In this document: in pieces, positions 5,069 through 47,795 of the stretch | Numbering within the stretch: position 1 is the first letter of the stretch | Layout of the letters: each line of letters starts with the position of its first letter | Assembly: GCA_965215125.1 (NCBI GenBank) | Contig: OZ244052.1 | Span: 1,952,001-2,016,000 of the forward strand | Reading direction: 5' to 3' | DNA from: an uncultured candidatus Porisulfidus sp. | GTDB taxonomy: Bacteria > Pseudomonadota > Gammaproteobacteria > Poriferisulfidales > Oxydemutatoraceae | Length of the DNA stretch: 64,000 nucleotides | Program-made: the position numbers and the translations under genes | Notes under the pieces: generated by a model | What the model saw: only the letters and a program-made list of their open reading frames with translations | Databases searched by the model: none | What the model was told of the DNA's origin: nothing

Positions 5069-5098
5069 AGCCTCTATAAATCACCCGTAGTTGTGATA

Positions 5099-5361
5099 CA
5101 TTCCCCTCCTTGTAGGGACGGACTCGTATGTCCGCCCTTAGGGTGGCAGGCGCAGCCTGACGGGGTGGTTGTGTCGTGTCTGCATGATTTATACATTCAT
5201 CCATCCAATTTATGGAAACCAAAAACAAATGGCGCAAGCGATTACGGCTGTGCAGAACGGCACTTAAGGGCAGACATATCAGTCTGCTCCTACAGGTGGG
5301 TTGGATAATTATACGGCGCATAGCGATTGGGTTCGTGCAAAACGGTATTTTTTCAACAGCC
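5099..5361. repeat. Composite REP/MITE-like repeat containing two empty IS110 target hairpins
   Basis: CATTCCCCTCC module, GTAGGGACGGAC-TCGTAT-GTCCGCCCT hairpin (5112-5139), AGGGCAGAC-ATATCA-GTCTGCTCCT hairpin (5267-5291), terminal TTTTTCAACAGCC. Confidence 0.85.
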
Positions 5362-29014: not shown

Positions 29015-29290
29015 AAAAGTATCTACGAACCGTAGGGGGTGGTTAATTCCCCTCCTGTGGAGGGGTGGCAGGCGAAGCCTGACGGGGTGGTTGTGTCGTG
29101 GGGCTGTTGAAAAAGTATCCACGAACCGTAGGGACGGTACATTCCCCTCCTTCGGAGGGGTGGCAGGCGAAGCCTGACGGGGTGGTTGTGTCGTATCTGC
29201 ACAATTTATACATCCATCCAATTTACGGAAGCCATTATTTGTCGGCGCAGGGCGGTTGGTGTTGTGCAGAACGGCACTTAAGGGCAAACA
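29004..29290. repeat. Composite repeat with two tandem ~97-bp units
   Basis: GGGCTGTTGAAAAAGTATC-x-ACGAACCGTAGGG at ~29005 and 29101, each followed by ATTCCCCTCC...GGAGGGGTGGCAGGCGAAGCCTGACGGGGTGGTTGTGTCGT. Confidence 0.9.
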
Positions 29291-29358
29291 GATATATTAA
29301 ACCTCGGCTTATTTGATATAAGATAAATGCTTAGGTAGATGCAGTGCCTAGGAGGACG
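29291..29358 (+). mobile_element. Truncated left end of the IS110 element (remnant of a second insertion)
   Basis: GATATATTAAACCTCGGCTTATTTGATATAAGATAAATGCTTAGGTAGATGCAGTGCCTAGGA is near-identical to 47578-47516 (minus) and is joined to AGGGCAAA-CA. Confidence 0.85.
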
Positions 29359-29364
29359 GTGCCG

Positions 29365-46078: not shown

Positions 46079-46097
46079 ATTTAGCAGATTGGATATT

Positions 46098-46245
46098 GGT
46101 CCATTCCCCTCCTATGGAGGGGTGGCAGGCTTCGCCTGACGGGGTGGTCGCAGAAGCTGGGCTGTTGAAAAAGTGCAGACATCGCACAAATCCAACCGCT
46201 TTGCGCCGTATAATTATCCAACCCACCTGTAGGGGCAGACTGATA
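46098..46245. repeat. Composite repeat, part flanking the IS110 right end
   Basis: CATTCCCCTCC module, GGGCTGTTGAAAA, and the half-hairpin GTAGGGGCAGACTGATA matching 5277-5340 in reverse. Confidence 0.85.
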
Positions 46246-46317
46246 TGATGCCTTATTAAAAGTCAAGTTATTTTATTCGTTTTTTATCTTTTTCTATCTC
46301 CTCTTCTGAGTATCAAT

Positions 46318-47304
46318 TTAGGACGCAGATACGCAACAATAATTCGGGTCAAACGGTTTCTTGTGCTTGAGTATTCCGTAAATGATACGCGTCAGTTTAT
46401 GGGCGCAAGCAACAATAACCTGCTTTTTGGTTAAATCCGGACGCCGCCGGCTTAACTGGTCGGCGAACGCACGGACGATTGGGTTATGAACCCGAGCCGA
46501 GAGTGCCGCCATAAATAGTGCGGTGCGCAGGTGTGCATCGCCAATTTTAGAGATGTGCGCCTTCGCCTCGTAGTTGCCGGATTGCTTGCGCATCGGAGTG
46601 ATGCCGATATAGGCGGCAAGTTGCTTTGGGTGTTGAAACGTATTATCATCAAAAGCTGCACATAGGGTGGCTGCGGTTTGAGTTCCGATTCCAGTAATAG
46701 AGCAGAGCAATTGATACTGCTGTGTGAGTTGTTCGTCTTCAGCGATGATTTCGTAAAGTAAGGCGTCACACTCATGGATTTGTTTCTGGAGGTGAGCGAG
46801 TTCTGCAGCTGCCTTCTTTTTGAGCTGCATACTGCGCAGCGTCTTTGCACAGTTGCTTAACTGCGTATGGGACTTGGTTAATTGCCGGCGCCATTTCAGT
46901 GTATCTCTCAAGGCGAATACTGCTTCGGTAGGCTGTTCCCAGTCTTGAATATCACCGACTGCAAATGCGAAGCGTGCGATGAGTTGCGCATCAACGCCAT
47001 CGGTTTTATTACGCATACCCAGCGTTTTGCGGTAGCTCGCGACCTGTACAGGTGGCACAATCGTGATGGGATGTTGGTCATAGCTTTCCATGCACAGGTC
47101 TAGCTCAAAACCGCCGGTTGCCTCAACGCAGAGGCGACACTGTTGCGCACCATGCTCGGTAGCCCAAGATAACAGTTGTTTGATGCCTTGGGCATCACTA
47201 CTAAATTGTTGCTCGGCAAAACTATTATCAGTGAATAATAGAGCCGCCTCTAAAGTGTCTTTAGAGACATCAACGCCAATCGTGACGGGTTGTTTGTTTT
47301 CCAT
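46318..47304 (-). CDS. IS110 DEDD recombinase (bridge recombinase type)
   Basis: GVDVSK, VEATG, KTDGVDA RuvC-like DEDD residues; SITGIG, G-x-x-P-x-x-x-QSG catalytic-Ser motif, ISKIG, A-x-AHKL. Confidence 0.95.
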   Translation of the reverse strand: MENKQPVTIGVDVSKDTLEAALLFTDNSFAEQQFSSDAQGIKQLLSWATEHGAQQCRLCVEATGGFELDLCMESYDQHPITIVPPVQVASYRKTLGMRNKTDGVDAQLIARFAFAVGDIQDWEQPTEAVFALRDTLKWRRQLTKSHTQLSNCAKTLRSMQLKKKAAAELAHLQKQIHECDALLYEIIAEDEQLTQQYQLLCSITGIGTQTAATLCAAFDDNTFQHPKQLAAYIGITPMRKQSGNYEAKAHISKIGDAHLRTALFMAALSARVHNPIVRAFADQLSRRRPDLTKKQVIVACAHKLTRIIYGILKHKKPFDPNYCCVSAS

Positions 47305-47344
47305 AATAAATTACTCCATAAGGGTTGGTTAATGAATGAAATAC

Positions 47345-47540
47345 TAGGTATCAAACACAGTTTAGGAAAGTATGACTACGCCGCCCAAACAGATGAATAC
47401 GAGATCTAAAGTCCCAAGCTGCCTTTCGAGCTCTATAGTCATAACGCCGGAGGAGTGCTTTTCATACCATCAGGCTTTAATGCCTCGTCCGTCCTGCAGC
47501 GTGTCTCCTCCGACTTCCTAGGCACTGCATCTACCTAAGC
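47345..47540 (-). ncRNA. Putative IS110 bridge RNA in the non-coding left end
   Basis: Two stem-internal-loop arms (47514-47446 and 47443-47371) carry sequences matching the target and donor junctions; the ends are estimated. Confidence 0.75.
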
Positions 47541-47570
47541 GTTTATCTTATATCAAATAAGCCAGGGTTT

Positions 47571-47576
47571 AATATA
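47571..47576 (-). promoter_or_regulatory. -10 box (TATATT) of a split promoter; the -35 TTGACT is at 46266-46261 in the other IS end
   Basis: Circularisation gives TTGACT-17 nt-TATATT. Confidence 0.8.
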
Positions 47577-47580
47577 TCTG

Positions 47581-47795
47581 TCCGCCCTAAAGTTCCGTTC
47601 TGCACAGCCGTAACCGCTTGCGCCGTATGGTTTTGGTTTCCATAAATTGGATGAATGAATGTATAAATCGTGCAGGCGCAACGCGTTACGGGCAGAATAG
47701 AGCCGCCGATTGAGCCGGTAGGTCAATCGGCAATTCAATTGAAGTCCGCCCCTACGGTGTATGAAATACTTTTTCAACAGCCCCAGCGTATCTGC
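47581..47795. repeat. Composite repeat, part flanking the IS110 left end
   Basis: Reverse complement of 5170-5274, then a CCGATTGA...TCAATCGG hairpin, GTCCGCCCCTAC and TTTTTCAACAGCCCC. Confidence 0.85.

Follow-up and report, generated by a model that had tools for sequence, protein, structure and literature searches.

An IS110-group insertion sequence and its predicted bridge RNA at REP-type hairpins of an uncultured Candidatus Porisulfidus genome

The stretch of DNA analyzed here has a length of 64,000 nt (positions 1,952,001 to 2,016,000 of contig OZ244052.1, assembly GCA_965215125.1) and is referred to as the window. It belongs to a single contig of 2.22 Mb from an uncultured Candidatus Porisulfidus sp. 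and carries an insertion sequence (IS) of the IS110 group at positions 46246-47580. According to our explanation, to which we assign a probability of about 0.9, a two-loop bridge RNA predicted in the left end of this IS directs its DEDD/Ser recombinase to extragenic hairpins of the repetitive extragenic palindrome (REP) type. REP-specific insertion of IS110 elements is already known. The particulars of the present case are a CA core at the junction of hairpin arm and loop, a right target guide of 7 nt which reads the loop, and two guide alleles in one genome. The element and the hairpin occupied by it consist of the following parts.

46246-47580, minus strand: IS110-family insertion sequence, copy A1, 1335 bp including the CA core at both ends (BLAST and flank reading)
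46318-47304, minus strand: recombinase gene, 328 aa, DEDD RuvC-like domain and Tnp domain with the conserved Ser-Gly (Pfam, NCBIfam, IS621 alignment)
47581-47588, minus strand: 5' arm AGGGCGGA of the occupied hairpin (its left half), then the core CA at 47580-47579 (sequence reading)
46229-46245, minus strand: loop and 3' arm TATCAGTCTGCCCCTAC of the occupied hairpin (its right half), located after the core CA at 46247-46246 (sequence reading)
46261-46266, minus strand: TTGACT in the right end of the IS (read from the sequence; putative function by analogy with IS621)

Insertion sites and the hairpin family

The recombinase is well covered by protein models. Its N-terminal DEDD RuvC-like domain matches PF01548 (5.2e-20, 72.2 bits, cut-off 29) and its C-terminal Tnp domain matches PF02371 (2e-25, 89.4 bits, cut-off 21.3). 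With 215.5 bits the protein also passes the cut-off of 140 for NCBIfam NF033542, 'IS110 family RNA-guided transposase'. The structure chain of IS621 (8wt6_A) is matched across residues 8-321 with an E-value of 1e-42. In this alignment D12, E61, D102 and D105 correspond to the DEDD residues of IS621, and S242-G243 corresponds to S241-G242. The catalytic residues of IS621 are those named by Hiraizumi et al.

By BLAST, nine copies of the IS were found in the genome. Four are full copies of a lineage A (97-100% identical) and one is a lineage A copy with an internal deletion (A5del). The remaining four form a lineage B, which comprises two full copies with 82% identity to A and two copies with the same nested IS of 1141 bp. 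As delimited, all nine copies have CA at both ends. The hairpin 5' arm (AGGGC[G/A]GA; CAGGCGGA in copy A3) is located directly before the starting CA in 9/9 copies, in a single orientation. Loop and 3' arm, reading T..A.TC.GCCCCTAC, follow directly after the terminal CA in eight of them, the exception being A5del. A previous reading of the window from its letters, the sequence-only reading, had proposed a scan of IS110 ends with the expectation that every copy sits at the CA in the same orientation, and the nine copies agree with this expectation. Full copies in unrelated sequence, which that reading had named as evidence against it, were not found among the nine genomic copies, all at hairpins, or the 11 right flanks read in sister genomes, likewise all at hairpins.

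Beyond the hairpin, the flanks represent several contexts without relation to each other, and the nine copies show different combinations of left and right context. Because of these unrelated contexts we regard the copies as separate insertions and not as one duplicated segment. The element is present in all four genomes of the same genus and was found in none of 36 more distant genomes searched. Eleven sister copies from three genomes, a subset of the 20 full-length matches listed, were read at their flanks. A hairpin half borders the right end in 11/11 and the left end in 10/11; the eleventh, which has no arm on the left, follows a left-end fragment of another copy. At G001:C1:265147-265225 of one sister genome (L014 / L019), an IS copy is located directly after a 79-nt left-end fragment, which is 95% identical to the IS of the present genome. 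This fragment ends in ...GGAGGAGA|CA, similar to the local hairpin arm.

The deleted copy A5del (genome positions 1429714-1428678) is without IS positions 106-390, and its right flank shows no hairpin half. The deletion lies between AAGGCATTAAA, which belongs to the apical hairpin of the target loop, and AAGGCAT[T/C]AAA, which belongs to the coding sequence.

Three empty hairpins were identified in the window, together with a repeat that contains one of them.

5268-5293, plus strand: empty REP-like hairpin GGGCAGAC-ATATCA-GTCTGCTCCTAC, core CA at 5275-5276, single-stranded DNA fold of -7.1 kcal/mol, z = -4.0
5137-5112, minus strand: empty REP-like hairpin GGGCGGAC-ATACGA-GTCCGTCCCTAC, core CA at 5130-5129, fold of -8.3 kcal/mol, z = -4.2
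60643-60618, minus strand: empty REP-like hairpin GGGTAGAC-ATACAA-GTCTGCCCCTAC, core CA at 60636-60635, fold of -5.4 kcal/mol, z = -2.7
5180-5361, no strand assigned: mosaic repeat that includes the 5268 hairpin and is paralogous to the sequence that received the IS of the window

All three were folded as single-stranded DNA and compared with 200 shuffles; each has a stem of 8-9 bp and a loop of 6 nt. The sequence-only reading had already reported these three hairpins and their CA dinucleotides, and direct reading and the genome-wide census locate them at exactly the same positions. A fourth empty hairpin was not found in the window by the census. In the core CA, the exchange dinucleotide, C closes the 8-bp 5' arm and A opens the 6-nt loop. 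The guides would read the 5' arm together with the loop. The former description of the target as the loop of a hairpin is correct in the hairpin and the CA and too narrow in naming the loop alone.

The reverse complement of the mosaic repeat is colinear with the joined flanks of the IS (46160-46245 and 47581-47675), with 160 of 180 ungapped columns identical (89%). The sole gap at the junction has 2 nt, which equals the core TG/CA; another gap of 1 nt occurs elsewhere. At the junction, the IS and one 2-nt core make up the difference between the empty paralogue and the occupied site. The colinearity had been described before, where the repeat was taken for a pre-insertion allele. At 89% identity we consider it a paralogous empty copy of the mosaic repeat and not an allele of the same locus. 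Among the sequencing runs that contain this sequence no RNA run was listed, and the four compared with the window are assembled contigs. A joint that skips from 46245 to 47579 (1333 nt, 2 nt ambiguous) in two of these runs (X1, X5) was also considered and was not counted as an orthologous empty allele or as an excision, because 30-nt sides at 90% likeness can stem from paralogous empty hairpins.

In the whole genome, a fuzzy hairpin pattern gave 90 strand-hits, which correspond to 62 empty loci, compared with 3 strand-hits in a first-order Markov random genome. A stricter pattern gave 57 matches, and its reversed control none. The narrower pattern of the sequence-only reading, AGGG[CT][AG][AG]ACATA, matches 14 times, five on the plus strand and nine on the minus strand. 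After re-orientation of four near-palindromic sites of the census, CA is present at the arm/loop junction in 60 of the 62 empty hairpins. Only four of the 62 hairpin centres are located inside open reading frames (ORFs) of at least 150 aa, while such ORFs cover 87.5% of the genome. Since the hairpins lie between genes, insertion would rarely disrupt coding sequence. The position of the centres is compatible with the previous suggestion that the repeat family may serve the IS as a safe harbour.

The hairpin is a short imperfect palindrome with many copies, as judged from the folds and the 62 loci. Its 3' end is CCCCTAC, which is GTAG on the opposite strand. A conserved GTAG-type tetranucleotide at one end of the palindrome is a defining mark of REPs. 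The census pattern demanded CTAC with at most two substitutions, so that the census is no independent count of CTAC ends. Among the IS right flanks, 8/9 read ...GCCCCTAC, with GTAG on the other strand. REPs are usually derived from REP-associated tyrosine transposase (RAYT) genes. No match to Y1_Tnp, the RAYT domain, was found in this genome, which is 99% complete; the positive control was matched in 6/14 genomes. Two of the four sister genomes of the same genus contain RAYT-like Y1_Tnp matches above the Pfam cut-off. The corresponding ORFs encode 181 and 198 aa and show their best NCBIfam match to 'REP-associated tyrosine transposase' with 58 bits, under the cut-off of 80. One of the RAYT-like genes is flanked by inverted copies of the GGGCGGAC hairpin. 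As sister genomes carry RAYT-like genes, one of them flanked by the same hairpin, we classify the hairpin as a REP for which this genome has no RAYT.

Copy numbers of GGGCRGAC-type hairpins are 57, 58, 300 and 129 in G000 (the present genome) and the sister genomes G001, G003 and G004, respectively. Hairpins of a second REP family, the GGGAGGGC type, occur 178 times in G001 and 152 times in G004 and are absent from the other three genomes. At G004:C2:362578-380424 (L021), long arrays of GGGCGGAC-ATATGA hairpins were observed with a spacing of 134-214 bp. They are organised in oppositely oriented blocks, between which RAYT-like ORFs of about 180 aa are located.

Besides complete copies, truncated left-end remnants comprising the first 45-110 nt of the IS were identified.

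29289-29359, plus strand: left-end remnant (IS positions 1-71) directly after a hairpin 5' arm (..TTAAGGGCAAA|CA), found by sequence comparison

Further remnants are located at genome positions 521885-521929, 1402591-1402490, 670310-670417 and 585709-585642. Of the four remnants which keep the IS start, three (f1, f2 and f5), one of them at 29289-29359, come after a hairpin 5' arm. The fourth, f4, shows 78% divergence and is located in non-hairpin sequence. In f5, a 45-bp left-end scar stands between the two halves of a hairpin.

Predicted bridge RNA and guide-target pairing

A consensus fold of nine left ends from four genomes shows two stem-loops with internal loops, and the single-sequence fold agrees with it. 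In the window the predicted structure is arranged as follows.

47446-47514, minus strand: target-side stem-loop, outer stem GUCGGAGGAG/CUCCUCCGGC, inner hairpin AGGC-AUUAAA-GCCU (predicted fold)
47494-47486, minus strand: left target guide (LTG) GGACGGACG, predicted in the target-side stem-loop
47469-47463, minus strand: right target guide (RTG) UGGUAUG, predicted in the target-side stem-loop
47371-47443, minus strand: donor-side stem-loop, outer stem UAUGACUAU/GUAGUCAUA (predicted fold)
47425-47418, minus strand: left donor guide (LDG) AAGGCAGC, predicted in the donor-side stem-loop
47395-47390, minus strand: right donor guide (RDG) CAUCUG, predicted in the donor-side stem-loop

For IS621, LTG and LDG carry the top-strand sequence and RTG and RDG the complementary sequence, the core included, according to Durrant et al. 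(2024). The same arrangement can be read here. In the first loop, the 5' strand ends with GGACGGAC[A/G], which equals the hairpin 5' arm GGGCGGAC with one A-for-G difference, and the 3' strand contains 7 nt which correspond to CA and the next five loop bases in reverse complement. The right end AAGGCATCA is matched in the second loop by AAGGCA[U/G]C, and the left end CAGATA is complementary to [U/C]AUCUG of the same loop. Sequence differences between the lineages cluster at the guide positions of the left end. Unlike in IS621, the second core base has no Watson-Crick match by the LTG in most lineages.

The evidence for guidance includes the covariation of guides and sites across lineages and species, for which 19 copies with intact flanks were used. 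Four RTG types co-vary with four loop variants, as listed here with the core and the right target (RT) that they face.

RTG UUGCAUG: loop with core CATGCAA; genomes G000 and G003
RTG UAGCAUG: loop with core CATGCTA; genomes G003 and G004
RTG UAACAUG: loop with core CATGTTA; genomes G001 and G004
RTG UGGUAUG: loop with core CATGCCA or CATATCA; genome G000

All 7 positions of the own RTG pair with the own RT in 17/19 copies, in 13 of them by Watson-Crick pairs alone. Among 57 combinations with a foreign guide type, one gave complete Watson-Crick pairing. Covariation also exists between the RDG and the right donor (RD), as AUCUG occurs with CAGAT and ACCUG with CAGGT. Two lineages have an LTG that tracks the arm, one with GGACGGAC for GGGCGGAC and the other with GAGGGC for GAGGGC. 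The LTG of the G001/G004 lineage, which sits in the GGGAGGGC-type REP family, does so only loosely (GAGAGGA for GGGAGGG). Lineage B (B1/B2) differs from the G003 locus L002 in about 41 of about 1340 columns (about 3%), yet the RTG differs in 2 of 7 positions (UGGUAUG versus UUGCAUG). This indicates that the guide is where change accumulates.

In 19/19 copies the RTG is followed by A, which could pair with donor T7 and not with target position 7. The base after the RDG is U in 18/19 copies and could pair with target A7 or G7. By analogy, these bases may fit the handshake-guide rule of IS621.

The use of sites in the present genome is further evidence for the explanation. The eight occupied sites with intact halves have the RT CATGCCA (four sites), CATGCAA (three) and CATATCA (one). 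Unoccupied loop variants include CACACAG (10), CATATAA (8), CATGTTA (6) and the CATAC loops (7). Pairing with a resident RTG with at most one wobble is possible for 8/8 occupied and 22/62 empty sites (Fisher p = 6e-4), a criterion which was chosen after seeing the data. If any number of wobbles is allowed, the ratio is 8/8 to 31/62 (p = 0.0065; likewise post hoc). Without wobble it is 3/8 to 12/62, which is not significant (p = 0.23). These tests treat copies as independent, which may not hold.

Among the empty hairpins of the window, the one at 5268-5293 has the RT 7-mer CATATCA, the loop variant which is occupied by the IS of the window. The right guide UGGUAUG pairs with it over 7/7 positions, by six Watson-Crick pairs and one wobble. 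With CATACGA (5130 site) and CATACAA (60636 site) it forms six pairs and one mismatch each, and both sites have one mismatch over 7 nt to either resident RTG. The right guide had been described before as GTATG, pairing perfectly with the CATAC variants and by wobble with CATAT. GUAUG is indeed the 3' five bases of the 7-nt guide, and the wobble with CATATCA stands. Over the full guide the CATAC sites are mismatched, and 0/7 CATAC-loop hairpins are occupied in the genome. The idea of a guide tuned by wobble to a degenerate family holds for the variant of the window. Four of the five UGGUAUG copies occupy fully paired sites (CATGCCA three times, CATATCA once) with exactly one wobble each, while the fifth, copy B1 at CATGCAA, has one mismatch. 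CATACCA, the perfect complement of UGGUAUG, is absent from the hairpin census.

Proposed mechanism and alternative explanations

By analogy with IS621, the IS would excise as a circle. TTGACT of the right end (RE) and TATATT of the left end (LE, 47576-47571) are 17 nt apart if the IS is circularised, and TTGACT-17-TATATT would form a sigma-70-type promoter across the RE-LE junction for transcription of the bridge RNA. As in IS621, the bridge RNA would pair with both strands of target and donor around the CA, and the recombinase would exchange strands beside the core. The 7-nt right guide would select the usable subset of hairpins, since the arms are conserved and the loops vary. UUGCAUG matches CATGCAA, and UGGUAUG matches CATGCCA and CATATCA by one G-U/G-T wobble each.

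Several observations weigh against this explanation. The copies within the genome and in the sister genomes are related, so that the counts overstate independence. The assignment of the RNA derives from the fold and covariation only, as Rfam shows no family for the window at gathering score and no left-end match at E ≤ 10, and covariation in the stems is thin, with a double change in 2/66 predicted pairs. The LTG has an A opposite a C at one internal position of every target in this genome, and by hand comparison the LTG of the G001/G004 lineage matches its own arm no better than the other arm type. The guide type of the window mismatches its own donor once in the LDG and once in the RDG. For two of the 19 copies, A4 and B1, the other resident guide gives a better match than the copy's own guide, so that the explanation requires guidance in trans for them. 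Furthermore, a RAYT gene flanked by REPs was not found in this genome.

It could be argued that protein-DNA contacts or contacts with the DNA structure are sufficient for the recombinase to recognise the hairpin, and that the similarity of the left-end guides is coincidental. The target is a strong palindrome, and the internal mismatch of the LTG to every target here would suit such recognition. The change of four RTG variants with four loops and of the RDG with the RD is not predicted by structure alone, the protein passes the cut-off of the RNA-guided model NF033542, and in ISPpu10 the stem-loop is reported to be unable to replace base pairing. We therefore consider recognition by structure alone very improbable, although less so than the following two explanations. 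The shared flanks might result from copying of segments that include IS and flank, by segmental duplication or by homologous recombination between mosaic repeats, instead of repeated site-specific insertion. The hairpins are located inside larger repeats with dozens of copies, and copies A1 and B3int have an identical left flank of 60 nt. Past the hairpin, however, flanks are unrelated and left and right sides combine differently, and the arm (G/A) and loop variants differ between copies. Compared with the paralogous empty site, the occupied site has exactly the IS and one core more at the junction, and diverged lineages in other species are found at the same position. We consider copying of segments extremely improbable.

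The hairpins might also be products of the IS, either excision footprints or IS-derived miniature elements, and not pre-existing targets. The scar in f5 indicates that loss of an IS can mark a hairpin. By inspection, however, the hairpin has no similarity to the IS ends, clean empty sites without scar exist, and empty hairpins outnumber the IS copies by about 7 to 1 (62 versus 9). In a sister genome, RAYT-like genes are bordered by inverted arrays of the same hairpin, and such genes are the usual source of REPs. An origin of the hairpins from the IS is extremely unlikely on this evidence. The explanation by a bridge RNA that directs the recombinase to REP-type hairpins accordingly stays the preferred one.

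A more extended interpretation can be built on it, which we regard as possible but rather doubtful in its entirety. In this interpretation, two bridge-RNA alleles would split the loops of one REP family between them, UGGUAUG being a wobble compromise guide without a perfect target; the guide module would be exchanged between lineages, and guides would act in trans. The guide module would consist of the left end and about 125 nt of coding sequence, and the copy of the window is a recombinant of this kind. Positions 1-399 of A1 belong to lineage B (one difference from B1), and from position 405 it belongs to lineage A (two differences from A2). The crossover interval 399-405 lies just after an internal AAGGCATCA (IS positions 392-400), which is identical to the right-end terminus. 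Since the crossover is located within 5 nt after this donor half-site, the exchange could be due to the recombinase, by half-site recombination, and not to homologous recombination.

The internal AAGGCATCA was also examined as a selected recombination site, in favour of which are the crossover of A1 and the deletion of A5del (106-390), which ends there. It was rejected as such and retained only within the extended interpretation: the motif shows synonymous variation (ATC/ATT, GGC/GGT), the G001/G004 lineage does not contain it, and divergence between the lineages rises gradually without a step.

Guides appear to act in trans between copies: two copies are located in sites which are matched only by the other allele, and a copy with disrupted recombinase has been duplicated to a second site. 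The composite B copies (genome positions 300463-297990 and 763826-766299) have a length of 2474 bp and show two differences. Both carry the nested 1141-bp IS at the same position, which disrupts the recombinase gene. As they are located in different hairpin contexts, the composite seems to have moved with help in trans. For the nested IS, seven further identical copies and two at 96% were found.

Comparison with known systems and further repeats

The previous remark that IS621 likewise targets REPs is supported by the literature, also for other IS110 members. Insertions in REPs were counted for ISPa11 (6/6), ISPpu9 (7/7), ISPpu10 (7/7) and ISRm19 (4/4) (Tobes and Pareja, 2006). With IS621 of E. 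coli, the present element shares the two protein domains with the aligned DEDD and Ser-Gly residues, the left-end bridge RNA with target and donor loops (predicted here), the arrangement of the guides, a 2-nt core at both ends, and a REP as natural target. A promoter split across the RE-LE junction is described for IS621 and placed here by analogy. The two elements differ in the core, which is CT in IS621 and CA here. The target ATCAGGCCTAC of IS621 is located at the ...GGCCTAC end of the E. coli REP, whereas here the crossover is at the apical arm/loop junction, where the RTG reads the loop. The natural RTG of IS621 pairs over 4 nt, that of the present element over 7 nt. The transposase of ISCro4 (PDB 9t56), the second solved recombinase of the IS110 family, is likened to the present one by sequence match alone (E-value of 4e-42 over residues 8-321).

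ISPpu10 and ISPpu9 of Pseudomonas putida and ISPa11 of P. aeruginosa are IS110-family elements as well, with all copies inside REPs at one position and a 2-bp duplication. In ISPpu10, the left target (LT) is part of the target stem-loop, for which a role is reported. Its LTG tolerates distal mismatches, and its RTG is strict but accepts a G-T wobble that supported insertion, which fits the pattern observed here. Guidance in trans was shown for IS621 and reported for ISPpu10. In ISPpu10 the partner arm is located 5' of the LT and the hairpin upstream of the crossover, while here the LT is the 5' arm, the partner arm is located 3' of the RT and the crossover lies inside the hairpin at the loop. 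Furthermore, the targets of ISPpu10 were reported as multiple identical copies, whereas in the present genome the loops are variable and two guide variants occur side by side. Neither guides that read a loop nor guide alleles resident in one genome were described in the listed titles and abstract openings from a full-text search for IS110, REP and bridge RNA; related targets may be given in the supplementary material of Tobes and Pareja (2006) and of Durrant et al. (2024).

The element is a well-resolved natural example of bridge-RNA elements and reveals no new mechanism. Its crossover at the arm/loop junction is a REP position different from those of IS621 and ISPpu10, at which the variable loop would decide on the usable copies. 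The guides of four genomes from one genus track two distinct REP families. The copies constitute a small set of naturally matched guides and targets, with wobble pairs and tolerated mismatches among them, which could inform rules for guide design and the prediction of off-targets.

Other repeats are found in the vicinity of the hairpins. Positions 5090-5165 and 46097-46150 belong to another dispersed repeat, CATTCCCCTCC..GGAGGGGTGGCAGGC..GCCTGACGGGGTGGT; the genome contains its 12-mers about 120 times. At 5090-5165, a REP hairpin is nested in this repeat. A second dispersed repeat is built on GCCGATTGACCTA and occurs about 110 times. In a scan for 12-mers resembling uptake sequences, the most frequent 12-mers of the genome belonged to other dispersed repeats with about 90-125 copies.

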